DNA of 64,000 nucleotides. Source: Verrucomicrobiota bacterium (GTDB taxonomy: Bacteria > Verrucomicrobiota > Verrucomicrobiia > Limisphaerales > SXTU01). Position numbers and translations under genes: made by a program. This document shows, one piece after another, positions 2,330 through 64,000 of this stretch. Each line of letters starts with the position of its first letter. The stretch's first letter is position 1. The notes under the pieces are model-generated. The model was not told the DNA's origin and searched no databases. It saw nothing but the letters and a program-made list of their open reading frames with translations. The stretch spans positions 2,199 to 66,198 of the forward strand of contig JBDKJY010000037.1 in assembly GCA_039796295.1 (NCBI GenBank), written 5' to 3'.

Positions 2330-2495
2330 GGAAGTGGGAGAGTAATCAGTGTTCAGTATCCAGTGTTCAGTCGGGTCCGGCACTCGATGGCTTCCTCCAA
2401 TTGTTCCTGACTGGTAGTGGAGTTGGAATCTCGGCAGGCTCCCATCGCGCGACAGCACCGACTACTGAACACCGAACACGGCTTACTTCCCTAAC

Positions 2496-3406: not shown

Positions 3407-6769
<3,363 letters not shown>

Positions 6770-16380: not shown

Positions 16381-17073
16381 ATGCCCTTCAAATACATCCA
16401 AGTTCCGAACACCAAAGACCCGAACAAATCCTCCACCCGCGCCGCCCTGGGCGACCCCGTAAGCGAAGCCGAGTTCTTCGCCTACATGGCCATCCTCCTC
16501 AGCAAACCGCCTGCCGATTGCGAAGCGGCCTTCAATGCGTTGCTGGATACCTGTGTCCACTTCGCCCGGGATACCCGCGCCACCAGCTACCTGCATGGCC
16601 GCCTGCGTATGCAACCCTCCAGCGGCGGCAGCTTCGAGACCGGCACCACCCCGCACTCCCCCAAGGACATCGGCGCGCGTATGAACCTCAGCCTCGGACC
16701 TGATACCGTCGCCGCCTTCGAGGACGACCTGAGCATCGAGAAGGTGGGCGAGGAAGGGGTGCGCGCCCCGCAGATTGACCGCGTGATAGACAACCGCACC
16801 GGGGACACCGATAAATACACGGCCTCCGATGTGCTGGAGGTGGACGGGGAGCACTTCGAGATCGACCCGACGGACACCGCGCAAGGGGTCTTCCTCACCC
16901 CGGTGGCGAGCGGTTCGGCTGTGCGCATCACCCGTTACCTGAGCGTCACGCCTACCCGCATCGAAGTGCTGCTGCCGGCCGGCCTCACCGGCCAGCAACG
17001 CCTCATGGTGGTGTGCAAGTATGACACCAGCCCCCTGCGCTCCAGCACTTACACCAGCGCCCTCAGCCCGTAG
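16381..17073 (+). CDS. HU-like DNA-binding N-terminal domain plus DUF4469-like Ig-fold C-terminal domain protein
   Basis: 230-aa ORF. The C-terminal pattern IDRVIDNRTGDTDKYTASDVLEVDGEHFEIDPTDTAQGVFL...RIEVLLPAGLTGQQRLMVV resembles Bacteroidetes HU/DUF4469 proteins. On the opposite strand to the surrounding RiPP genes. Confidence 0.5.
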   Translation: MPFKYIQVPNTKDPNKSSTRAALGDPVSEAEFFAYMAILLSKPPADCEAAFNALLDTCVHFARDTRATSYLHGRLRMQPSSGGSFETGTTPHSPKDIGARMNLSLGPDTVAAFEDDLSIEKVGEEGVRAPQIDRVIDNRTGDTDKYTASDVLEVDGEHFEIDPTDTAQGVFLTPVASGSAVRITRYLSVTPTRIEVLLPAGLTGQQRLMVVCKYDTSPLRSSTYTSALSP

Positions 17074-17259
17074 GGTCACCCTCCGCCGGTCTGACCCCCA
17101 CCCTCCGCACCACCGAGGGTCACCCTCGCGACGCCGTAGGGTCACCCTCCGACGAGCTGAGGGTCACCCTCCATGAGTCTGAGGGTCACCCTCGTTACGA
17201 CTGAGGGTCACCCTCGTGACGGCTGAGGGTCACCCTCCGCGCGGCTGAGGATGACCCTT
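17071..17259. repeat. tandem array: 9 units at an exact 22-bp period of the 13-bp palindrome GAGGGTCACCCTC
   Basis: Units start at 17071, 17093, 17115, 17137, 17159, 17181, 17203, 17225 and 17247. Five are perfect GAGGGTCACCCTC, two are TAGGGTCACCCTC, and two are degenerate. Spacers are variable 7-mers followed by CT. Confidence 0.95.
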
Positions 17260-28093: not shown

Positions 28094-28439
28094 CGCGCCA
28101 GCGTCTTGGAGTGCGCCAGCCCTCTGGCGCTTTCCCCGTCGTGGCCGAACTCATACCAGTTCCAAATGAGTTCCGTGCAACCGCTTGGGGACCGCGACGC
28201 GCTTCGACTCCCTCTCCCTTCATTGGATGAGGAGAGAGGGCCGGGGTGAGGGGTTACGTGCGTCGGTGTTGGCGGCCCCACCCCTCATCCGGCCTTCGGT
28301 CACCTTCTCCCTTCCTCCGAGGAAGGGAGAAGGCGTGCGTCGTTGCGTCCGGTTAGCATCCCACCGACTGGCATCTTGAATGTGAAGCCCACCACTGACA
28401 AAGCGGCAGAGGACTGCCGCACTCCAAGACGCTGGCGCG
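28094..28439. repeat. composite nested repeat: two 'QSKTLAR-type' half-elements flanking an inverted GEGRGEG pair
   Basis: GCGCCAGCGTCTTGGAGTGCG (28094-28114) and CGCACTCCAAGACGCTGGCGC (28419-28439) are perfect inverted repeats. GEGRGEG-type copies at 28207-28255 and 28279-28333 lie between them. Confidence 0.8.
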
Positions 28440-30646: not shown

Positions 30647-31222
30647 GCCGTGCCGCCGCCACTGCGCCAGCTCGTGCTTCACCCGCTCCTGCGGCAGGCC
30701 GACCACGTTGCTGAATGACCCGGAGATGCGCTCCACGATTTGGTCCCCGTGGTCTTGGATGGCGTAAGCCCCGGCTTTGTCCAGCGGCTGGATGGCGGCG
30801 AGGTAGGTCGCGATTTGCGCCTCAGTCAGCGGCTTGAACGTCACGTTCGTCGTCTCGGCGAAAAGACGGCAACGGTGCGCGCCGAGTTGCAGCAGGCAGA
30901 CGCCGGTCACGACTTGGTGCGTGTGCCCGGCCAACTCGCGGAGCATCCGGTGCGCGTCGGCGAGGTCGGCGGGTTTGCCGTAAAGCGTCGTGCCCAGATA
31001 CACGAGCGTGTCCGCGCCGAGCACGAGTGCCTGCGGGTGAACCTTCGCCACCACGCGAGCCTTGCGATAGGCATTCACCAGACACAGCTCGCGCGCCGTG
31101 AAGTCCTCCTGATGCGCCTCCTCCGCCGCGCTGGTGATGACCGCGAACTCCAGCCCCAGCTCACGGAGCAGTTCCGCGCGGCGCGGCGAGGCGGAGGCGA
31201 GGATGAGCGGAGGAGAGGGCAT
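30644..31222 (-). CDS. maf: Maf-like nucleoside triphosphate pyrophosphatase
   Basis: 192-aa ORF. N-terminal LILASASPRRAELL, plus GAYAIQ and VVGLP motifs. Confidence 0.9.
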   Translation of the reverse strand: MPSPPLILASASPRRAELLRELGLEFAVITSAAEEAHQEDFTARELCLVNAYRKARVVAKVHPQALVLGADTLVYLGTTLYGKPADLADAHRMLRELAGHTHQVVTGVCLLQLGAHRCRLFAETTNVTFKPLTEAQIATYLAAIQPLDKAGAYAIQDHGDQIVERISGSFSNVVGLPQERVKHELAQWRRHG

Positions 31223-31229
31223 GGGGAGA

Positions 31230-31295
31230 GTGATTAGTAATTAGTGATTAGTGGGTGGCAGAAGAGTCGTCGCACGCAAACTAATTACTAATCAC
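31230..31295. repeat. hairpin built from complementary heptamer arrays (GTGATTAGTAATTAGT / ACTAATTACTAATCAC)
   Basis: 16-bp perfect stem (31230-31245 with 31280-31295) and a 34-nt loop. Lies between the DUF58 stop and the maf start. Confidence 0.75.
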
Positions 31296-32257
31296 TAACT
31301 ACTTCCTCCCCTCCTCCTCCGCTTCACCCGCGTGTCAAAGAACTTCCCCAACGCCGCCGCGTAAGGCTGGTCCGTGCGGAGCTGGATCGAGTCCAGGCCG
31401 ATGGTGCGGAAGGCGCGCCGCAGCGCGGTCTGGAACAGGGCTTGATGCTCGGCGAAGGCGGCGCGATGCCGGGCGTTGCTGGTCTGGATTTCTACGACCT
31501 CACCGGTCTCAGCGTCTTTCAACACGAGGCGGCCCAACGCGGGGAGTTCGAGTTCGTAGCGGTCGGTGATTTGCACGGCCACAAGGTCGTGGCGGCGATG
31601 GGCCTGCCGGAGGGCGACCTGCGTGGCAGGCGCGAGCGGTTCGCCAAAGGCCATCGGCTGCGTGGGTGCGCGCGAGCCGAAGCGCATCGGCGCACGGGCT
31701 TCGAGAAAGTCCGAGAGCACCACCACCACGGACTTGTGCGGAAGCATGCGGCTGACGAAGTGCAGCGCGCCCGGCAGGTCCGTGCCGTGGCGCTTCGGCT
31801 CGAAGAAGAGGATTTCGCGGATGACGCGCAGCACATGGCGACGGCCCTTGCGCGGCGGGATGAACTTCTCCACCTCGTCGCTGAAGAGCACGAGTCCTAC
31901 CTTGTCGTTGTTGCGGATGGCGGAGAACGCGAGCACCGAGGCGATCTCGGCGGCCAGCTCGCGCTTGGATTGCTCGCCGGAGCCGAAGAGGCCGGAGCCG
32001 CTCAGGTCCACGACCAGCATCACCGTCATCTCCCGCTCCTCCACGAACTTCTTGATGAACGGGTGGTTCATCCGCGCCGTGACGTTCCAGTCAATCGCCC
32101 GCACATCATCGCCGGGCTGATACTCGCGCACCTCGTCGAAGTTCATGCCTTGGCCCTTGAACACGCTGTGATACGCGCCGGACACGGACTCGGACACGAG
32201 GCGGTTGGTGCGAATCTCGATCTGGCGGATCTTCTTGAGCAGCTCGCGAGGGATCAT
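31295..32257 (-). CDS. DUF58 domain protein (MoxR-associated, vWA-like)
   Basis: 320-aa ORF. The motif FKGQGMNFDEVREYQPGDDVRAIDWNVTAR is the DUF58 hallmark. Confidence 0.85.
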   Translation of the reverse strand: MIPRELLKKIRQIEIRTNRLVSESVSGAYHSVFKGQGMNFDEVREYQPGDDVRAIDWNVTARMNHPFIKKFVEEREMTVMLVVDLSGSGLFGSGEQSKRELAAEIASVLAFSAIRNNDKVGLVLFSDEVEKFIPPRKGRRHVLRVIREILFFEPKRHGTDLPGALHFVSRMLPHKSVVVVLSDFLEARAPMRFGSRAPTQPMAFGEPLAPATQVALRQAHRRHDLVAVQITDRYELELPALGRLVLKDAETGEVVEIQTSNARHRAAFAEHQALFQTALRRAFRTIGLDSIQLRTDQPYAAALGKFFDTRVKRRRRGGSS

Positions 32258-43225: not shown

Positions 43226-45610
43226 GTGACTCCGCCTACCGCCCACTCCGATCCCGAAACGCCGAACTCGGAACGCTTCGTCACGCCCGGGCGTTTCGCC
43301 ACCCTGCTTGCTCTGCTCGTCTTCGTCTCGTGGTCGGATGTCCTCCTCGGCGCGGGGAGCTTCGTCCTGCGCGACTACAGCCTCTTTGGCTATCCCATCG
43401 CGCACTACCACCACGACTGTTTCTGGCGCGGCGAACTGCCGCTCTGGAACCCGCTCAACAACTGCGGCCTCCCCTTCCTCGCGCAGTGGAACACGCTGAC
43501 GCTTTACCCCGGTGCGCTCTGCTACCTGCTCCTGCCGCTGCCGTGGTCGCTGGGCTTGTTCATGCTGTTGCATCTCTGGCTCGGCGGCTTCGGCGTGTAT
43601 GCCCTCGCGCGCCGTTGGACGGAGCTGAACTTCCCCGCCGCCGTCGCCGGCGTGGCCTACGCCTTTCACGGCCTTGTGCAGCAATCCCTCATGTGGCCGA
43701 ACAACCTCGCCGCCTTCGCCCTGCTCCCGTGGGTCGTGCTGACGGTGGAAACCGGCGTGCGCGAAGGTGGTCGCAAGCACGTCGTGGCTGCGCTCGTCGG
43801 CGCGCTGCAAATGCTCACCGGCGCGCCGGAGGTAATCCTGTTCACCTGGCTGCTGGTCGCGGCGTTGGCGGCGGGGAGACTGTTCAGTGTTCAGTGTTCA
43901 GTGTTCAGAAGGTGTTCGGAACTCGGCGTGCCCACCGAGCGCCCGCCACTCTTCACTCTTCACCCTTCACTCTTCACTCCCCTCCTCCGCCTCCTCAGCG
44001 TCATCGTCCTCGTCACCCTCCTCGCCGCCGCCCAACTCCTGCCCTTCCTCGAACTCCTTCACCATTCGCAGCGGGACGCGGGCTTCAACGGCGCGATCTG
44101 GTCTTTGCCCCTCTGGGGCGCGGCGAACCTCGTATCGCCGCTCTTCCAGACAACGCTTTCCGCGCCCGGCGTGCCTTTCCAAAACGGGCAGAGCTGGACG
44201 GCTTCGTTCTACGCCGGCCTGCCCGTGCTCGCGCTCGCACTCGTCGCCGTCCGGCGCGGCAGTTCACCGCGGGTATGGGTGCTTGCGACCGTGGTGCTCT
44301 TGAGCCTCGCGACCGCCCTAGGTGAGAACGGCTGGTTGTATCTCGCCTTGAAACAAATCGGGCCGCTCGGCGGGATGCGCTACCCGGCGAAGTTCGTCAT
44401 CCCGCTCACCTTCGCGCTCCCGTTGCTCGCCGCCTTCGCGCTGCGCGACTTGCTCCCCGCCCCGGGCCAGCCGCTTCCCCTGGCCCCCACCGCTCGCCGA
44501 CGCTTGTGGGGAGCTGCCAGCGTGCTCCTCGCCCTCAGCGTAGGCCTCACGCTGTATGGCTGGAAGCACCCGGTGCCGGGCGAAGGCGAGGCCGGTCAAC
44601 ACCTCTTGCTGCGCGGCACCCTGGTGGGCGGCATCGCGCTGCTCCTAGCGCTCGCGGCCGTGTTGGGACTGGCGCGGGCCGGGACGCCGGGGCGAACCCT
44701 CAGCCTTAGTCTCGCGCTCCTGGTCTTGATTTTCTTGGACCTGAAAACCCACCTGCCCCAGCTCACCCCACGAGTCGCCCTCGACGTTTACCAGCCCGGT
44801 CATCCGCTCACGCAAGCCCCGGACGCCCCGCGCCTCGGTGGCCCCCGTGCCGCGCTCACCTGGCAGGCGGCGCAGGAGTTCAGAGGCAAGCTCCTGCCCA
44901 GCTTTACCGACACGCTCCTGAACCAGCGCATGGGCCTCTTCGGAGACCTCAATCTGATCGAGGGCCTCCCCAAAACCGACGGCTTCTTCAGCCTCTACCT
45001 GCGCGCGCAGCGGGAGGTTGAGACGCAGCTCATCTTCGGGAGCCAGACAAACTCGCTCCCCGACCCGATCCTGGACTTCCATGGCATCGCGCACCTCAGC
45101 TCCTCGACGAACCTCTTCCAGTGGCACCACCGCGCCACCGCCCTCCCGCTCATCACCGCCGGGCAACGCCCCGAGTTCGTCGCCGCCGAGCAGACCCTGA
45201 CTGCGCTCGGCTCGCCCGGGTGGAACCCCACGGCGACCGTTTTCATTCATCCGTGGGACCGGATGTATGTGCCCAACACCAACGCCACAACCGCCAAAGT
45301 CCTGTCCACGCACTGGACCGCCCACCGCATCGAGTGCGAAGTGGACTCGCCCGCGCCCACGCTGGTCGTCCTCGCGCAAGCGTTCTACACTCCGTGGCAA
45401 GCCACCGTGAACGGCCAGCCAACAAACATCCTTCGCGCCAACTACGCCTTCCAAGCCGTGCCCATCCCGGCTGGCCGGAGCACGGTGCGGCTGGAGTATG
45501 TGGACCACCGCTTCCAACTTGGTGTCGGGTTGTCCGCGCTCGGCCTCCTCGCGTGCTGCGTCCTCTGGTGCCGCGCCAAACCCAGCGCCTCACTAATCAC
45601 TAAACACTAA
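43226..45610 (+). CDS. YfhO-like GT-C membrane protein, paralog 1
   Basis: 794 aa, polytopic. The C-terminal pattern FYTPWQATVNGQPTNILRANYAFQAVPIPAGRSTVRLEYV is typical of the YfhO family. First of three tandem paralogs. Confidence 0.8.
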   Translation: MTPPTAHSDPETPNSERFVTPGRFATLLALLVFVSWSDVLLGAGSFVLRDYSLFGYPIAHYHHDCFWRGELPLWNPLNNCGLPFLAQWNTLTLYPGALCYLLLPLPWSLGLFMLLHLWLGGFGVYALARRWTELNFPAAVAGVAYAFHGLVQQSLMWPNNLAAFALLPWVVLTVETGVREGGRKHVVAALVGALQMLTGAPEVILFTWLLVAALAAGRLFSVQCSVFRRCSELGVPTERPPLFTLHPSLFTPLLRLLSVIVLVTLLAAAQLLPFLELLHHSQRDAGFNGAIWSLPLWGAANLVSPLFQTTLSAPGVPFQNGQSWTASFYAGLPVLALALVAVRRGSSPRVWVLATVVLLSLATALGENGWLYLALKQIGPLGGMRYPAKFVIPLTFALPLLAAFALRDLLPAPGQPLPLAPTARRRLWGAASVLLALSVGLTLYGWKHPVPGEGEAGQHLLLRGTLVGGIALLLALAAVLGLARAGTPGRTLSLSLALLVLIFLDLKTHLPQLTPRVALDVYQPGHPLTQAPDAPRLGGPRAALTWQAAQEFRGKLLPSFTDTLLNQRMGLFGDLNLIEGLPKTDGFFSLYLRAQREVETQLIFGSQTNSLPDPILDFHGIAHLSSSTNLFQWHHRATALPLITAGQRPEFVAAEQTLTALGSPGWNPTATVFIHPWDRMYVPNTNATTAKVLSTHWTAHRIECEVDSPAPTLVVLAQAFYTPWQATVNGQPTNILRANYAFQAVPIPAGRSTVRLEYVDHRFQLGVGLSALGLLACCVLWCRAKPSASLITKH

Positions 45611-45619
45611 TCACTCACC

Positions 45620-48280
45620 TTGGCTGAACTCGTCCCCACTGACAGATCGCAATTGCCCGACTGGTTCACCCCGCGGCGCTTCGCCGTCTTCCTCCTCCTC
45701 GCCTTCGTCCTCGCCTTCCCCGGCATCTGGCTGGGCACCGAGACCTTCTTCCGCTCCGACTACGGCGTGATGGCTTATCCGTCCGCGCACTACCTGCGCG
45801 AGAGCCTCCGCGTCGGCGAACTGCCGCTCTGGAACCCGCTCTCGAACTGCGGCGCACCCTTCCTCGCGCAATGGGGCACCATGTGCCTCTACCCCGGCTC
45901 GCTCTTCTTCGTCGCGCTGCCGATGCCCTGGGCACTGGGCGTCTTCTGCCTCCTGCACCTGTGGCTCGGTGGCCTCGGAGCGCGGGCCTTGGCGGAACGC
46001 TGGACGGGCAACCGCTTCGCCGCCGCCGTCGCCGGCACGGCCTTCGCCATCAACGGCGCGTCGCTTGCGTGCATCACCTGGCCGAACTACTGCGTCGCCC
46101 TCGGCTGGATGCCGTGGATTGTCCTGCTCACCGAGCAAGCGTGGCGCGAAGGCGGCCGCAAACTCGTCCTCGCCGCGCTGGCGGGCACGATGCAGATGCT
46201 CACCGGCGTGCCGGAGTTGGTCGTGCTGACGTGGGGTTTGCTCGCGGTGATGCTCGTCGCCGAGTGGGTTCAAAGTTCAAAGTTCAAAGTTCAAAGTCAG
46301 TCGGCGCACGAACCCTCCGTCCCCCTCGCCCCCATCGGGGGAGAGGGCCGGGGTGAGGGGGTAGGCCACCCACAACCCACTGCGCCCAAGTCTCCAGCAC
46401 CCTCCCCACTAATCACTTATCACTTCTCACTCCTCACCCGCTTCACCGCCGTCATCCTCCTCATCACCGCCCTCTCCGCCGCGCAACTCCTCCCCTTCTT
46501 CGACCTCCTCGCCCACTCGCAGCGCGACGCCGCCTACCGCGACGCCCGCTGGCCGATGCCGCCGTGGGGCTGGGCGAACTTCCTCGTGCCGCTCTTCCGC
46601 TACTTCCAAACCCCGCAGGGCCTCTGGGTGCAGCAAGACCAGCAATTCCTCTCCAGCTACTATCTCGGCCTCGGCGTGCTCGCGCTCGCGTTGTTGGCCG
46701 TCTGGAAATCCCGCGAGCGCCGCGTCTGGCTGCTGGCGGGCGCAACCGCGTTCGCCCTCGTCATGGCGCTCGGCGATGCTGGCTACCTCTACACCGCGCT
46801 GAAACACGCCTTGCCTGGCGGCGGCATCGCGCGCTTCCCCGTGAAGTTCGTCCTCCTCGCCGCCTTCACCGCGCCCATGCTCGCCGCCTTCGGCGTCGCG
46901 TGGCTCATGGGAAATGCTGAAGGTGGAAGGCGGAAGGCGGAACCCGCCGCCACACCGCGCCCGGTAGGGCGAGACTCCGTCGAGCCCTCGATACCGCCAC
47001 AGGCGGTGCGAGCGCAGCGAGCATCTCCGGCAGCCGCGTCCGAAACCGAAACTCGCTGCGCTCGCCTCGCTGCGCTCGAAATGGGGTTCGACGGAGTCTC
47101 GCCCTACCGGGCGCTCCTCACCATCGGCATCGCCCTCGTGGCGGCCGTGGCGGCCGTCCTCTGGCTCGGCCAGCAGCACCCGCTGCAATACGACCGTTGG
47201 CCGGAGACAACCAACAATGCGCTCATCAGGATTTCGCTGCTCCTGCTGTTCCTTGTGACCATGGGCGCGCTGCTCCGCCCGGCTATCAGCGCCAACTTGG
47301 TGGCCAGCCTCGTGTTGCTCGTCCTGCTTGTCGATCTTCTAGGGCATATGCCGGCGCAGTCGCCGCGCGTCCCGGCGTTTACCATGAGCGTGTGGCCCAA
47401 ACTCTCACAGGCGCCCGAGGTCACCGGAGTTGAACCGAGGCGGTTTTTCATCACTCCATTCGCCGAGCAAGACCTGCTCTACGGAAAGCAGGTTAATTGG
47501 CCGGCTATGCACGACGACACAGGGCATTATGCTGGGTTCCAACTAGATGTATGGCCGGATCATCTACTGATGGACGCATTGAGCAAGGGAACCGCCAAGT
47601 GGTCCCATCTGAACTTGTTGAGCCGCGCTTACAAGGTGAACGGTTCCTCCACGTTGCAAGTCCGTGAACAAGCAGACGTTCAAAAGCGGCTATATCCAAC
47701 CAACCTCGCCACCGTGCCGAACGCGGACGGGATGAAGGATTTCCTGGCTGTGAATCGGATCATCAATCCGCGCGGTCCCTATCTCTGGACAAAAAGCGAT
47801 TCTGCGTTGGCGCTGGTTGCCGGAGGAACTGCTCCGACCTTTTCCGAATCTGCCGAGCTGCTCGATCAGCTCGTTGCCCCTCGCTTTGCCCCGCGCCGCG
47901 TCGTGTATCTGCCTCTTGAGGCGCAAGGCTTCGTCCCCACGAACTCCGCCAACGCCCGCGTCACCACCCACCGCTTCGCCGCCCACGAAATCCTCGCCGA
48001 GGTCGAGACCGACGCCCCGACGCTCGTGACCGTGGCGCAATCCTTCTACCACCCGTGGCGTGCCTTCGTGGACGGACAGCCGGTTAAACTCTGGCGCGCG
48101 AACTACGCCTTCCAAGCCCTCGTCGTCCCGGCGGGCAAACACACCATCCGCCTCGTGTATGTGGATGAGCAGTTCCGCCTCGGTGTCGGCATTTCGCTCG
48201 CGGGCTTGGCGGTGTGCGGCTTCCTCTGGTGGCGCGCGGGACGCGCGACTACCAGCGCACCTGAACCTATCGTGACATGA
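45620..48280 (+). CDS. YfhO-like GT-C membrane protein, paralog 2
   Basis: 886 aa (TTG start). The N-terminal 200 aa are collinear with paralogs 1 and 3. C-terminus FYHPWRAFVDGQPVKLWRANYAFQALVVPAGKHTIRLVYV. Carries in-frame repeat insertions. Confidence 0.8.
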   Translation: MAELVPTDRSQLPDWFTPRRFAVFLLLAFVLAFPGIWLGTETFFRSDYGVMAYPSAHYLRESLRVGELPLWNPLSNCGAPFLAQWGTMCLYPGSLFFVALPMPWALGVFCLLHLWLGGLGARALAERWTGNRFAAAVAGTAFAINGASLACITWPNYCVALGWMPWIVLLTEQAWREGGRKLVLAALAGTMQMLTGVPELVVLTWGLLAVMLVAEWVQSSKFKVQSQSAHEPSVPLAPIGGEGRGEGVGHPQPTAPKSPAPSPLITYHFSLLTRFTAVILLITALSAAQLLPFFDLLAHSQRDAAYRDARWPMPPWGWANFLVPLFRYFQTPQGLWVQQDQQFLSSYYLGLGVLALALLAVWKSRERRVWLLAGATAFALVMALGDAGYLYTALKHALPGGGIARFPVKFVLLAAFTAPMLAAFGVAWLMGNAEGGRRKAEPAATPRPVGRDSVEPSIPPQAVRAQRASPAAASETETRCARLAALEMGFDGVSPYRALLTIGIALVAAVAAVLWLGQQHPLQYDRWPETTNNALIRISLLLLFLVTMGALLRPAISANLVASLVLLVLLVDLLGHMPAQSPRVPAFTMSVWPKLSQAPEVTGVEPRRFFITPFAEQDLLYGKQVNWPAMHDDTGHYAGFQLDVWPDHLLMDALSKGTAKWSHLNLLSRAYKVNGSSTLQVREQADVQKRLYPTNLATVPNADGMKDFLAVNRIINPRGPYLWTKSDSALALVAGGTAPTFSESAELLDQLVAPRFAPRRVVYLPLEAQGFVPTNSANARVTTHRFAAHEILAEVETDAPTLVTVAQSFYHPWRAFVDGQPVKLWRANYAFQALVVPAGKHTIRLVYVDEQFRLGVGISLAGLAVCGFLWWRAGRATTSAPEPIVT
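46961..47110. repeat. 150-bp palindromic MITE-like element embedded in-frame in YfhO paralog 2
   Basis: The arms CCGGTAGGGCGAGACTCCGTCGA (46961-46983) and TCGACGGAGTCTCGCCCTACCGG (47088-47110) are perfect reverse complements. Inner sub-palindrome GCGAGCGCAGCGAG / CTCGCTGCGCTCGC. Length is 50 codons. Confidence 0.85.
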
Positions 48281-48298
48281 CTCTTCCACCGCACCCCA

Positions 48299-48390
48299 CA
48301 AAGCGGCGGAGGGCCGCCGCACTCCAAGACGCTGGCGCGCCCATTCTGCGCGCCAGCGTCTTGGACTGCGCCAGCCCTCTGGCGCTTTTC
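48299..48390. repeat. palindromic 'QSKTLAR-type' hairpin element
   Basis: Arms AAAGCGGCGGAGGGCCGCCGCACTCCAAGACGCTGGCGCG and CGCGCCAGCGTCTTGGACTGCGCCAGCCCTCTGGCGCTTTT around an 8-nt loop. Directly after the stop of YfhO paralog 2. Confidence 0.85.
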
Positions 48391-48419
48391 CCCGGACGCC
48401 ACCAAGCTCCCCCCACGCC

Positions 48420-51146
48420 GTGACCAACCCCACGACCAAGTCCGAACTCAGAACTCCGAACCCAGAACTGTCGCTCCTCACCCCCCGCCGCTTCGCCCTC
48501 GTGCTCGCCGTGCTCCTCGCCGTCACGTTCTGGCGCGTGCTCTTCGGCGGCGAGGCGTTCTTCTATCGCGACTACGGGTTCCTCGGCTACCCGTTCGCGC
48601 ACTTCCACCGCGAGTGTTTCTGGAGCGGCGACTTCTTCCCGCTGTGGAATCCCTACGTGAACTGCGGCGCGCCCTACCTCGCGCAATGGAACACGCTTTG
48701 CCTCTACCCTGGCTCGCTCCTCTACCTACTCCTGCCGCTCCCGTGGTCGCTGGGGCTCTTCTGCGTGGCGCACCTGTTCCTCGGCGGGATGGGGATGCGC
48801 GCGCTGGCGGAGCGGTGGACGGGCAGCTCGTTCAGCGCGGCGGTGGCGGGCGTGGCGTTCATCTTCAGCGGGCTGGTGCTGGGCTGCACCATCTACCCGA
48901 ACTACCTCGTCGCATTGGGCTGGATGCCGTGGGTCGTGCTCGCGACGCGACGCGCGTGGCAGGAGGGCGGGCGAAGCCTCGTCCTCGCCGCGCTGACCGG
49001 CGCGATGCAGATGCTGACAGGTGCGCCGGAAATCATTTTGCTGACGTGGGGGTTTCTCGCAGCCTTGGTCGTGGTGGATTGGGTCCAAAGTCCAAAGTCC
49101 AAAGTCCAAAGTTGGTCGGCGCAAGGATGCGATGGGGAGCAGGGTGATTCCTCCCTCACCCCGGCCCTCTCCCGCTGGGAGAGGGAGGGCGCAAGTGCGA
49201 CGGCGGAGACTTCTCATGCGCCACTAGCGAAGCCCGCTCCCGTGCATTCCGCTCCGCAGTCAGCAGTGCCCGAGTCCACAGCAACGCAGCCGACGTCTCC
49301 CCCTCTCCTAGCGGGAGAGGGCCGGGGTGAGGGAGAACGCGCGCCCATTGAAACCACCGTGCCCCCTTCAGTCCGACGCGCCACTAATCACTACTCACTA
49401 ATCACTCGTTTCTTCGCCGTCATCGCCCTCATCACCGGCCTCTGCGCCGCGCAACTCCTCCCGTTCCTCCAACTCCTCTCGCTCTCGCAGCGCAGCGGGG
49501 ATGCGGTGAACTCGTTTTGGTCGCTGCCGGGCTGGGGCTGGGTGAACCTGTTCTTCCCGCTGTTCATGAACTTCCAGACCGAGCAGGGCGTGTTCGTGAT
49601 GATCGGGCAGGCGTTCTTCCCGTCGGTTTATCTGGGCATCGTGCCGCTGACGCTGGCGCTGCTGGCGGTGTGGCGCGTGCGGACGCCGGAGGTGAAGCTG
49701 CTCGGCACGGCCACTCTGCTGGCCGTGCTGCTGGCGATGGGGGACAACTTCGTGCTCTGGCGTGCGCTGCGCGAAGTGTTGCCGTTGGGCATCATGCGCT
49801 TCCCGATCAAGGCGCTGCTGCTCGCGGCCTTCACGGTGCCGCTGCTGGCGGCTTGGGGAATGAAGTGGCTTGAGGATGTTGCGGTTGAGCTTCCGAAGGA
49901 TTTGCGTCAATCCCATGACTTCAGCCCTGAATTCTGGAGGCGACTGCGCGCGCACGAGGGCTGGAGGGAAGTTTGCCAACTCCTCCCCGTGCTGTTGTCC
50001 TCCGCGTTAGCGGTCGCACTCCTTGCAACGCTCTACCAAATCGGGGAACAGCCAGTGCGGGAAATTAGGCTTCGCACCCTGCTCGTGGCACTTCAAGAGT
50101 TGGTGCCGGGAATGTTCATAATCGCGTGTGTCGTGTTCACTCTTGGGTGGAGGTATCGAAACCGTTTCGTTTTGTTCCCGCTGGTTCTACTTCCAATCTG
50201 CACTGTCTTTACTCATCACCCGATCCTGAACCCCACCATCCCCGCCTCCGCCTTCGAGCCGGGCCTCGCCGCCGCCTACCACGCCAGCAAGGACGCGCTC
50301 ACGCCCGCGCCGAAGCTCGGCGAGTCGCGCATCATGCTCAGTCCGCTGGCCGAACGCGCGCTGCACACGCGGATGGTGCCGAAGTTCTACGACGACTTCA
50401 TCGGCCAGCGGCTGGCGTTCTGGGGCAACCTGAACCTGCTCGACGGGCTGCCGAAAGTGAACGGTGCGTCCACGCTCGTGACGCGCGAGTGGAACGACGT
50501 GGAGTATTTCCTCTACGGCACCACGAACCCCGCGCCCGCGAACCTCATGGACTTCCTCGGCGTGACGCACACGACCAAGCCCGGCGAGCTGATGCAGTGG
50601 GAACGCCGGACAAATGCGCTGCCGCTGGTGAGTTTGCCGCAGCAAGTCATTGAACTCGGCCGCGAGTTCGACCCGCTGCCGGAGTGGATGCAGAAGGCGG
50701 ACTGGGATCCCCGCTCGCTTGCGTTTCTAACCAAGCCGAAATCGGGGGAAAGCTCGGCGGAATTTCTGACGATCGTCTGCTATACACAAGGCCAGAAACC
50801 ACCGACTCCGCTCGGGGCTGTTCGAGTCAGCCGATTCGCCACCTCTCAGGTCGAGCTGGAGGTCGAAGCCAACATGCCACGGTGGGTGGTGCTGGCGCAG
50901 AACCATTACCCAAGCTGGCAGGCGACGGTGAATGGAGAAAAGACGGTCATCCGCAAAGCCAACCACGCTTTCCAAGCTATCCCTGTCCCCGCCGGCCAGA
51001 GCACCGTCCACCTCACCTACGTGGACTGGCATTTCCGCATCGGCGGCGGCATTTCGCTGGCGGGCTTGGCGGTGTGCGGTCTCCTCTGGTGGCGTGCGGG
51101 CTGCGGGCCGACCACCGTAACTGAAGTTGGCGGGACGGGAGAGTGA
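48420..51146 (+). CDS. YfhO-like GT-C membrane protein, paralog 3
   Basis: 908 aa (GTG start). Same N- and C-terminal architecture (HYPSWQATVNGEKTVIRKANHAFQAIPVPAGQSTVHLTYV). Has the largest repeat-built insert, at 49083-49404. Confidence 0.8.
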   Translation: MTNPTTKSELRTPNPELSLLTPRRFALVLAVLLAVTFWRVLFGGEAFFYRDYGFLGYPFAHFHRECFWSGDFFPLWNPYVNCGAPYLAQWNTLCLYPGSLLYLLLPLPWSLGLFCVAHLFLGGMGMRALAERWTGSSFSAAVAGVAFIFSGLVLGCTIYPNYLVALGWMPWVVLATRRAWQEGGRSLVLAALTGAMQMLTGAPEIILLTWGFLAALVVVDWVQSPKSKVQSWSAQGCDGEQGDSSLTPALSRWEREGASATAETSHAPLAKPAPVHSAPQSAVPESTATQPTSPPLLAGEGRGEGERAPIETTVPPSVRRATNHYSLITRFFAVIALITGLCAAQLLPFLQLLSLSQRSGDAVNSFWSLPGWGWVNLFFPLFMNFQTEQGVFVMIGQAFFPSVYLGIVPLTLALLAVWRVRTPEVKLLGTATLLAVLLAMGDNFVLWRALREVLPLGIMRFPIKALLLAAFTVPLLAAWGMKWLEDVAVELPKDLRQSHDFSPEFWRRLRAHEGWREVCQLLPVLLSSALAVALLATLYQIGEQPVREIRLRTLLVALQELVPGMFIIACVVFTLGWRYRNRFVLFPLVLLPICTVFTHHPILNPTIPASAFEPGLAAAYHASKDALTPAPKLGESRIMLSPLAERALHTRMVPKFYDDFIGQRLAFWGNLNLLDGLPKVNGASTLVTREWNDVEYFLYGTTNPAPANLMDFLGVTHTTKPGELMQWERRTNALPLVSLPQQVIELGREFDPLPEWMQKADWDPRSLAFLTKPKSGESSAEFLTIVCYTQGQKPPTPLGAVRVSRFATSQVELEVEANMPRWVVLAQNHYPSWQATVNGEKTVIRKANHAFQAIPVPAGQSTVHLTYVDWHFRIGGGISLAGLAVCGLLWWRAGCGPTTVTEVGGTGE

Positions 51147-51157
51147 GTCCGTAAGCC

Positions 51158-51250
51158 AAAAGCGGCGGAGGGCCGCCGCACTCCAAGACGCTGGCCCGAA
51201 GAGGGGGCGCGCCAGCGTCTTGGACTGCGCCAGCCCTCTGGCGCTTTTCC
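51158..51250. repeat. palindromic 'QSKTLAR-type' hairpin element
   Basis: Same family as 48299-48390. Directly after the stop of YfhO paralog 3. A half-copy lies at 43168-43198, after the MFS gene. Confidence 0.85.
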
Positions 51251-51337
51251 TCGGACCCCGGGCAGCCACCTCTTCGCCAGAACATCCCCTGCCGCCAACT
51301 CCAACTCGGAACCCAACACTCGGAACTCAAAACCGCT

Positions 51338-52432
51338 TCACCGCGCCAGCGGCAGGGTGAAGATAAACGTGGCACCTTTGCCCGGCTCGCTGCGGGCGGA
51401 GATTTTGCCGCCGTGGTCTTCGACGATCTTCTTGCAGATGGAGAGGCCCAGGCCGGTGCCGCTCTGCTTGCCGTGCGTGGCGAAGGGCTCGAAGAGGCGC
51501 TGGGCGATCTCGGGCGCGATGCCCGGGCCGGTGTCTTCCACCTCGGTGACCACTTCGCTGTCGCGCTGGTAGGCCCGGATCGTGATGAGGCCGCCGGGTT
51601 TCATCTCTTCGCAGGCGTTGTTGACGAGGTTGTAGAAGAGGCGTGAGAGGCGCTGCGGCTCGAGCGCTACCGCTACCGCCGGCAGCGGCGGCTCGACGCG
51701 CAACTGCATCCCGCGCTCGGCGATCTCCGCGCCGAGCTCCTCGCCCAGCGCGCCGACATATTCGGCGTAGCTGACGGTGGCCAGGACGAGCTGGGAACTG
51801 GTGTTGCGGGTGAAGTCCAGCAGTTCGTTGAGCATGTTGGTCATGCGGGCGACCTGTCGGGAGATGCGCACCTGGGCCTGGCCGCGCAGCTCGGGGGTGG
51901 CGTGGTCCATACCGGCCATCTCAGCGGCGAGGCCGATGACGTTGAGTGGGTTCTTGAAGTCGTGGACGATGGTGCGCGCGAAGCGGCCCACCATGGCGAG
52001 GCGTTCGGCCTGGAGGATTTCATCTATGTATTTCTGGTTCAGCGAACGGACGCGCTGGCTGAACTCGCGGATGAGGTTCAAGGCCAGCTTGGGGCGATGC
52101 TCCAGCAGGAGCAGCAGCTCCGGGCGTCCGATGCAGAACGCCTGTGTCTCCACCTCGGCGGTGGCGGTGGCGGACCGTGGGGCTTCGTCCAGCAGGGCCA
52201 TCTCGCCGAAGAACTCGCCGGCGGCGAAGGTCGCCAGCTGGCGCGAGTCCTTACCGACGACAGCAGAAATGACGACACGGCCCGACTCGACGAGGTAGAA
52301 GCCGTCGCCCGAATCGCCCGCGCGGAAGATGGTCTCGCCGGCTCGGAACCGACGCATCTTGGCGGTCTGTTCCAACGCCTGGAGTTCTTCGTTGAGGAGT
52401 CCGGCGAAGCGTTTCTCTTCGAGTGGGTTCAT
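51338..52432 (-). CDS. cyclic nucleotide-binding domain histidine kinase
   Basis: 364 aa. N-terminal cNMP-binding pattern ([18 protein letters not shown]...[15 protein letters not shown]). Followed by the H-box VHDFKNPLN and HATPase_c motifs (DTGPGI, GTGLGLS). Confidence 0.88.
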
Positions 52433-56793: not shown

Positions 56794-57209
56794 TGGGGGG
56801 AGTTGAGAGTTGAAGGTTGAGGGTTGAGAGGGGGCGGCTGGCCGGAAGCGTCATTGCCCGTGTCGAGGCGGACGAAGCAGACGGCGGCGATGACGCAGGC
56901 GAAGGCGGCGAAGTGATTCCACTTCAGCTTCTCGCCAAGGAAGCCGACCGCAAAGCCGCTGAAGACGACGAACGTGATAACTTCCTGCATGATCTTGAGC
57001 TGCGTCGCCGAGTAAGTGCCGTGGCCCCAGCGGTTCGCCGGCACCATCAGGCAATACTCGAAGAACGCGATGCCCCAACTCGCCAGCACGACCACCCAGA
57101 GCGGCGCGGTCTTGAACTTCAGATGCCCATACCACGCGACCGTCATGAAGACGTTCGAGGCGATGAGCAGCAGGATGGGCGTGAACCGGGATTCAGTGAG
57201 CGATGCCAT
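56790..57209 (-). CDS. DMT-superfamily small membrane protein (DUF486-like)
   Basis: 139 aa with 4 TM segments. [13 protein letters not shown] motif. 4-nt overlap with the hisI start. Confidence 0.75.
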
Positions 57210-63795: not shown

Positions 63796-64000
63796 AATGC
63801 CTGCTATCTCCTTGCTTTCGAGGTGTTTTTCTTGATGGCTCCAATTGAGATTGGTTCTCCGGGAGCTGTCTCAAGTCTTCCGAGCGCCGTCTTAAGTCTT
63901 CCGGGAGCTGTCTTAAGCTTTCGCTCCTTCGGGGATCATAGTGGGTAAAGATCGAGCTTTCCGCAGAAGAACAGGATGCGCGTCCGGTAGTTCTGAAAGT

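Follow-up and report, generated by a model that had tools for sequence, protein, structure and literature searches.

Heptanucleotide repeat modules in a tandem cluster of YfhO-like genes of a Verrucomicrobiota bacterium

Why do three neighbouring genes for predicted membrane proteins each carry, at the same position, four copies of a seven-nucleotide unit, when the gain or loss of a single unit would shift the reading frame? The question is raised by a 64,000-nucleotide stretch of DNA (hereafter the window; assembly GCA_039796295.1, contig JBDKJY010000037.1, positions 2,199 to 66,198) from a Verrucomicrobiota bacterium of the order Limisphaerales. The initial annotation of the window took these repeats, which lie in the YfhO-like genes Y1, Y2 and Y3, for slipped-strand contingency loci of the classic design, drawn from a genome-wide module family co-opted into coding sequence. 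We followed the arrays through the window and through related loci, and we favour, with a probability of about 0.55, the reading that they are clade-specific, translated, slippage-prone heptanucleotide microsatellite modules in YfhO genes. The frameshift hot spots that they form are real; adaptive phase variation by means of them is possible and unproven.

Heptamer arrays in the reading frames of the YfhO-like genes

The three genes stand in tandem on the plus strand: Y1 (43226..45610, 794 aa), Y2 (45620..48280, 886 aa, with a TTG start that adjoins a CACTAAT array) and Y3 (48420..51146, 908 aa). All three were assigned by open reading frame (ORF), Pfam match and paralog alignment. The products are 41–44 % identical to one another, and it is the C-terminal part only that matches PF09586 (YfhO), with 34.9–37.5 bits (34.9 for Y1) against a gathering cut-off of 28.5; all three are predicted to be YfhO-like membrane glycosyltransferases of the GT-C type. 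A search of the PDB gave no sequence relative of these proteins.

Each gene contains a perfect left array on the plus strand, which is (TGTTCAG)x4.0 in Y1 (43881..43908, peptide FSVQCSVF), (GTTCAAA)x4.3 in Y2 (46268..46297, VQSSKFKVQS) and (GTCCAAA)x4.3 in Y3 (49083..49112, VQSPKSKVQS). In the paralog alignment the three occupy the same columns, about 222–235, just as the initial annotation had placed them at homologous positions, and they are the only perfect arrays of at least four copies at periods 4–12 in the window. A second, degenerate period-7 array, likewise anticipated, follows 3' of each: (CACTCTT)x4.7 in Y1 (43947..43979, plus strand), whose peptide PLFTLHPSLFT opens the next transmembrane (TM) helix; a CACTAAT-type array in Y2 (46402..46437, plus strand, LITYHFSLLT), degenerate at the in-frame TAA; and CACTAAT x3.6 in Y3 (49382..49406, plus strand, TNHYSLIT), where the in-frame TAA has become TAC. 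The two arrays mark the ends of a segment that we call loop 1.

Further sites are found in the same genes, again on the plus strand. The second loop of Y2 holds a remnant array of GAAGGCG x3.4 (46913..46947), and orthologs have (AATGCGG)x4 or (AATCGGC)x4-5 there. An N-terminal array of GAACTCA/GAACCCA units occupies codons 8–17 of Y3 (48441..48469, SELRTPNPE), and a degenerate remnant of the same type can be read by eye in Y1 (43249..43275, SDPETPNSE). At the junction of Y1 and Y2, a CACTAAT-type array (45588..45619) supplies the Y1 stop codon TAA at 45608–45610 and adjoins the TTG start of Y2. With the relatives included, the sites within YfhO genes are of four kinds: the first ~25 codons, where CCCCAGA x4, ATTCGCA x4 or GAACTCN is carried, both ends of loop 1, the second loop of Y2, and the C-terminal tail or junction. 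From hydropathy, counting back from the large C-terminal domain, the N-terminal tail, the two loops and the C-terminal tail would all lie on the cytoplasmic side of the membrane.

It was found that period 7 is the sole over-represented period in the window. When arrays were scored by 80 % self-match over four units, there were 12 with period 7, compared with 0.05 in shuffled sequence, and 0–5 for each of the periods 4–6 and 8–15. The same excess was seen in 37 related loci (542 kb), with 93 period-7 arrays against at most nine for any other period. The relatives are uncultured Verrucomicrobiota of the Limisphaerales/Pedosphaera type; several verrucomicrobial contigs (L004, L005, L008–L010, L012, L013 and L030) bear titles such as Klebsiella, Akkermansia muciniphila or Proteobacteria, probably through errors in the taxonomy of metagenome-assembled genomes. 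Period-7 arrays occurred only in loci with a GC content of 0.63–0.67 and close YfhO relatives, while 19 loci of distant Verrucomicrobia had none; the arrays are limited to a single clade, which is Limisphaerales/Pedosphaera-like.

In the clade loci and the window taken together, 165 of the 179 arrays fell in YfhO gene territory, mostly within ORFs, at a density of 0.78 per kb compared with 0.07 per kb in the flanks, a roughly 11-fold difference. A wider module family that includes hairpin pairs does exist, as had been proposed, but in view of this concentration the term genome-wide calls for qualification. The repertoire of units is limited, with 45 canonical units for 162 arrays and about ten of them dominant. 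CACTAAT, GGCAAAA, CCCCAGA, GTCCAAA, ATTCGCA, AATGCGG and others recur at non-homologous sites, and in locus L041 an identical 37-nt ATTCGCA module is present at two such sites, the loop of Y0 and the N-terminus of Y2. In six contexts (CACTAAT)n with a short pyrimidine stretch stands immediately before a start codon. We also noticed that cross-species blastn matches of more than 90 % identity (window 45654–46252 and 46452–46906, against many loci) end exactly at heptamer modules, so that hypervariable repeat segments form the limits of the conserved TM blocks.

By their reading frames, the arrays are translated. The ORFs of Y1–Y3 stay open through the left array, the variable stretch and the right array. 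When loop 1 was delimited by the conserved motifs Q[ML]L.G.PE and AAQLLPF in the window paralogs and 75 related loci, 98 of 100 loop instances were in the same frame and free of stop codons, and the out-of-frame ones represent a single allele present in two assemblies. An intervening sequence or a split gene can be ruled out by this single-frame read-through in all paralogs and orthologs. The region measures 171 nt in distant Verrucomicrobia, which have no heptamers, and 183–483 nt in the clade. As 7 is not a multiple of 3 and the two are coprime, each of the seven cyclic triplets is read once in every three units, and units without a stop, such as GTTCAAA and CACTCTT, can therefore be perfect; CACTAAT and CTGAACA arrays are altered exactly at the positions where TAA or TGA would be in frame. 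Annotation calls for caution here, since the YfhO genes are prone to be split or called wrongly where the arrays lie.

The archetype of the module is an inverted pair of arrays of about four units around a spacer. Left and right arrays are reverse-complementary in many orthologs (GGCAAAA/CCTTTTT, TGTTCAG/CTGAACA, GTGTTGC/GCAACAC). A polar peptide rich in K/R is encoded by the A-rich left arm, and the start of the next TM helix by the complementary arm on the right, which is T/C-rich; this may be why an inverted repeat is tolerated at the boundary between loop and TM segment. Hairpins with array arms reached z-scores of −6.0 (Y3 of L011), −5.8 (Y3 of L010) and −5 to −6 (window 31222–31310). The arms of Y1 and Y2 in the window barely pair (z −1.9 and −1.7), and RNA hairpins are a weak candidate for these two genes. 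No known RNA family in Rfam matched the arrays.

Unit losses, copy number and homogenisation

Single-unit changes were seen in relatives. Locus L011 is 99.87 % identical to L040 and L065 over 10.8 kb, with a single indel: in L040/L065 one GTGTTCA unit is missing, so that (GTGTTCA)4 is reduced to three units and Y1 is frameshifted. In L076 the array is (GGCAAAA)3, compared with four units in four relatives, and Y2 is frameshifted. These are two independent one-unit losses, each of which breaks the frame, as the initial annotation had expected of a unit not divisible by three. In a further locus, L077, the spacer and right arm are deleted, again with a frameshift. Seventy-two of the 76 YfhO genes with resolved ends are intact, and every disruption within the clade falls in a heptamer module. 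Tolerated changes are in-frame 21-nt steps (Y2 of L048; L023 compared with L049/L055), and the N-terminus of Y2 in the window has one unit where relatives have four, also an in-frame change.

Copy number is otherwise close to fixed: of the 19 orthologs and paralogs with a left array of type (a), 17 show 4.3 units exactly, no allele with an additional unit occurred among the loci examined, and strain pairs at 98.8–99.9 % identity mostly show no length change. The comparison of strains thus yielded two −1 alleles and several three-unit changes, while most pairs and 17 of the 19 arrays were unchanged. A copy number fixed at four had been named as the outcome that would speak against contingency loci, and the near-fixation comes close to it. 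Of the classic contingency design, the frame-breaking unit and its occasional loss are upheld. Against that design stand the near-fixed copy number, the frame kept by 98 of the 100 loops, the 21-nt size of the tolerated steps, and the tracts themselves, which are short (28–30 nt) and often imperfect in relatives.

The density of substitutions in the same strain pairs did not differ consistently between array and non-array sequence. No strain of the species to which the window belongs turned up in a metagenome scan, and an exact look-up of the Y2 protein gave no record. When the N-terminus of Y2 was used as a protein query, the matches listed were proteins of up to 400 aa; they serve to find frameshifted alleles but are of no use for their frequencies. 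Four heptamer-free relatives (P0020, P0024, P0034 and P0056) have frameshifted tails that begin in the same loop, perhaps through errors in sequencing or because the site is fragile irrespective of the arrays.

The units of an array change in concert. Perfect arrays of GTCCAAA, GTTCAAA and GTTCAAG are found at one homologous site, which implies homogenisation of the units, and in the right arm of Y1 CACTGAA was replaced by CACTCTT in all units. The blocks flanking the loop fall into four ancient paralog classes, and these are concordant upstream and downstream, which rules out that N- and C-terminal blocks have been shuffled between paralogs with the arrays as break-points. The loop modules, in contrast, are scattered among orthologs and common to the paralogs of one genome, with CGGAAAA/TTACGCA in all four paralogs of L007 and GGCAAAA/CCTTTTT in all four of L008. 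In the loops, 8-mer sharing was 0.103 between paralogs of the same genome and 0.049 between orthologs of different genomes, whereas in the flanks it was 0.139 and 0.405, respectively. The four paralogs of L007 have almost the same right arm despite diverged adjacent codons.

Other repeats in the window

Apart from those at 45588, 46913 and 48441, the remaining modules that had been listed for the window were also found. One forms a hairpin with heptamer-array arms (AGTGATT/ACTAATY; 31229..31303, minus strand) between the stop of a DUF58 gene and the start of a Maf gene, and its CACTAAT arm adjoins an ATG. The view that complementary modules form hairpin arms holds well for this pair (31229/31280, z −5.1 to −6.4) and weakly for the inverted pair TCAGTGT ... 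CTGAACA (2346..2480, plus strand; 2346/2459, z −1.1) upstream of a nucleotidyl transferase gene. An array of period 7/14 (51297..51336, plus strand) is found where Y3 and a convergent histidine kinase gene (51338–52432, minus strand) meet, between the end of the former and the stop of the latter, and a DMT_6 transporter gene carries another in its C-terminal tail (56798..56830, minus strand). An in-frame (CCAGACN) array was additionally seen in a UDPGP-like ORF (3641..3669, plus strand, peptide SPDARPQTQ).

Palindromic elements of other types are also present in the YfhO genes. A sequence resembling repetitive extragenic palindromes (REP), GGGAGAGGGCCGGGGTGAGGG, has 10 copies in the window, with 0 expected (15106, 16105/16217, 19276/19352, 28232, 37629, 46339 and 49153/49313), often as inverted pairs in the manner of miniature inverted-repeat transposable elements (MITEs). 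Three of the 10 copies lie within the Y2 and Y3 loops and are translated in frame as GEGRGEG: an arm at 46339..46359 (plus strand) in Y2, and in Y3 an in-frame MITE-like insert (49145..49340, plus strand) with inverted palindromes at 49153–49173 (minus) and 49313–49333 (plus), a pair that forms a long hairpin of ~200 nt (z −9.4). A dispersed palindromic repeat has thus entered the Y2 and Y3 ORFs in frame and without stop codons. In Y2 orthologs the second loop contains an in-frame inverted repeat, GGTAGCAGCCGACGTGAGGAGGCT ... AGCCTCCTCACGTCGGCTGCTACC (GSSRREEA...SLLTSAAT), with a heptamer array in its loop (L042 6120–6240, L041 6258–6380, L011 4525–4645 and other Y2 orthologs).

Directly after the Y2 and Y3 stop codons, at 48301–48390 and 51160–51250, there is a ~90-nt palindromic element (AAAGCGGCGGAGGGCCGCCGCACTCCAAGACGCTGGCG...CGCCAGCGTCTTGGACTGCGCCAGCCCTCTGGCGCTTTTC); related copies are located at 28096–28120 and 28413–28437, with six arm matches in the window compared with 0 expected. 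In several species a short conserved hairpin, GAGACTCCTRACGTCGTCTCC, precedes the GTG start of Y2 or Y3 by ~20–30 nt (L002 2000–2050; L007 9915–9960 and 12500–12545; L041 4950–5000 and 7695–7740). Elsewhere in the window, Tandem Repeats Finder detected a repeat of period 22/44/66 at 17072–17258, consisting of about eight copies of (G)AGGGTCACCCT(C), a palindromic motif that recurs at intervals of 22 nt and is separated by variable spacers of 10 nt; the whole looks like a putative array of binding sites. A 21-nt tandem repeat x2.9 (TCCGAGAGCCGTCTTAAGTCT, 82 % matches) is found at 63858–63917.

Origin of the arrays and comparison with known systems

According to the reading that we favour, the array segments would be cytoplasmic and tolerant of insertions, and replication slippage biased towards 7-nt steps would create the arrays and keep them homogeneous, with possible contributions from template switching across the hairpin arms and from short-tract conversion between paralogs. 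Purifying selection would hold the total length divisible by three and free of stops. Slips of one unit, seen twice, frameshift and inactivate one paralog, and slips of three units alter the loop length in frame; the spacer of some genes has also received REP/MITE palindromes. The on/off effect would then be a rare, ON-biased by-product and not a demonstrated switch. Several points weigh against this. A set-point of about four units is kept regardless of unit or context, which is not obvious from passive slippage; a limited repertoire of units recurs at non-homologous sites, as in the ATTCGCA module of L041; the right arm in L007 is nearly the same in four paralogs next to diverged codons; and passive slippage leaves the 11-fold enrichment in YfhO clusters unexplained. 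These observations hint at a function at the level of the nucleic acid or at an active copying mechanism. In addition, hydropathy is the sole basis for the cytoplasmic topology.

The arrays might instead have been selected as true contingency loci, slipped-strand on/off switches of the YfhO paralogs that give combinatorial states of surface glycans, for example against phages. The unit not divisible by three within ORFs, the position of arrays close to the start (within 25 codons) and around codon 215, and the concentration in a tandem family of envelope glycosyltransferase genes are what such switches would look like, and the intragenic heptanucleotide repeat of Neisseria pglE is a precedent (PMC7157529). 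Two independent one-unit OFF alleles, otherwise intact, exist in natural populations, and homogenisation of the units implies repeated cycles of loss and gain. However, the number of units hardly departs from ~4.3 whatever the species or paralog, ~97–98 % of alleles are ON instead of both states being common, no +1 alleles were seen, the tracts are short and often imperfect, close strain pairs mostly lack length changes, and similar arrays stand in intergenic spacers and other genes. We regard this explanation as rather doubtful. A stronger form of it seems unlikely to us, namely a self-homogenising heptamer cassette system that truly phase-varies a set of three to four envelope GT-C glycosyltransferases in free-living Verrucomicrobia, in which a dedicated mechanism beyond polymerase slippage would supply every paralog, at corresponding sites, with copies from a limited repertoire of inverted ~4-unit array pairs.

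A function of the nucleic acid itself, with coding merely tolerated, we consider decidedly unlikely. The array pairs would be RNA or DNA hairpins or periodic single-strand binding sites, with G-free CACUAAU leaders acting as unstructured platforms for translation initiation, or with pausing or processing sites within the operon. The strong array-arm hairpins in some orthologs and at 31229/31280, the (CACTAAT)n and pyrimidine stretches next to start codons, the right-arm identity at the nucleotide level across diverged paralogs and the recurring repertoire would agree with this. It fits poorly with the arms of Y1 and Y2 in the window, which barely pair, with a diversity of units too great for one sequence-specific binder and no Rfam match, and with the loss of arm complementarity wherever a stop codon would arise. 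Mobile hairpin elements, similar to MITEs or to paired REP sequences (REPINs), for which each paralog would offer one and the same permissive site of insertion or homing, could account for the inverted pair with a spacer, for the same module at non-homologous sites and for the occurrence of each module type in each paralog class in some genome, and a genuine REP/MITE family is present inside the loops. Such an origin is nevertheless very improbable, considering that copies with the same arms have no conserved spacer or core, that no target-site duplication or transposase was identified, that the arms are simple repeats and not a fixed recognition sequence, and that short loops replace the ancestral loop instead of adding to it.

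For decades an unexplained excess of heptamer microsatellites has been on record for bacteria, and here it is concentrated ~11-fold in one tandem gene family, which offers a tractable natural system for the origin and upkeep of 7-nt repeats. It also bears on whether environmental, non-pathogenic bacteria use switching by simple sequence repeats (SSRs) on genes for envelope glycosylation. In the literature on heptamer repeats in Verrucomicrobia or on phase variation of YfhO, nothing relevant was found.

Phase-variable glycosyltransferase genes with SSR tracts are the nearest functional comparison. The lipooligosaccharide genes of Haemophilus have tetranucleotide tracts. In Neisseria, switching of the glycosyltransferase gene pglE is controlled by its heptanucleotide repeat (PMC7157529). 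The YfhO arrays resemble pglE-type loci in having a 7-nt unit within the ORF of an envelope glycosyltransferase, where a slip of one unit shifts the frame, and they share with SSR-switched glycosyltransferases in general the presence of tracts in several paralogous or related genes. Unlike those, the YfhO tracts have ~4 almost invariant units and are nearly always ON, they form inverted pairs that encode a loop and the start of a TM segment, and the host is a free-living Verrucomicrobium. Rickettsia palindromic elements are palindromic insertions in frame within genes. Similarly, GGGAGAGGGCCGGGGTGAGGG and the array hairpins stand in frame in ORFs, in segments that probably tolerate additional peptide; the arms of the array hairpins, however, are tandem heptamers that are active in slippage and homogenised among paralogs.

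Lineage-specific heptanucleotide families are known from cyanobacteria, as short tandemly repeated repetitive (STRR) sequences, and from Xanthomonas and Nostoc, as repeats of the GGGAATC type (PMC4692102), and TAACTGA repeats occur in Beggiatoaceae (PMC4679880). A heptamer-biased excess of SSRs and long SSRs (LSSRs) in other bacteria is attributed to Mrazek (2007) in both of these papers. The arrays described here share with such families an excess specific to period 7, restriction to a clade, dispersed copies, occasional inverted pairs, a position next to start codons and the reading of all seven cyclic codons. Members of those families stand mostly between genes and are built from one or a few units, whereas the YfhO arrays lie mostly inside ORFs at conserved positions, and there is turnover among orthologs of about a dozen unit types or more. 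An excess of heptamer SSRs is known in other phyla, and in this clade the arrays are concentrated in the ORFs of one gene family.

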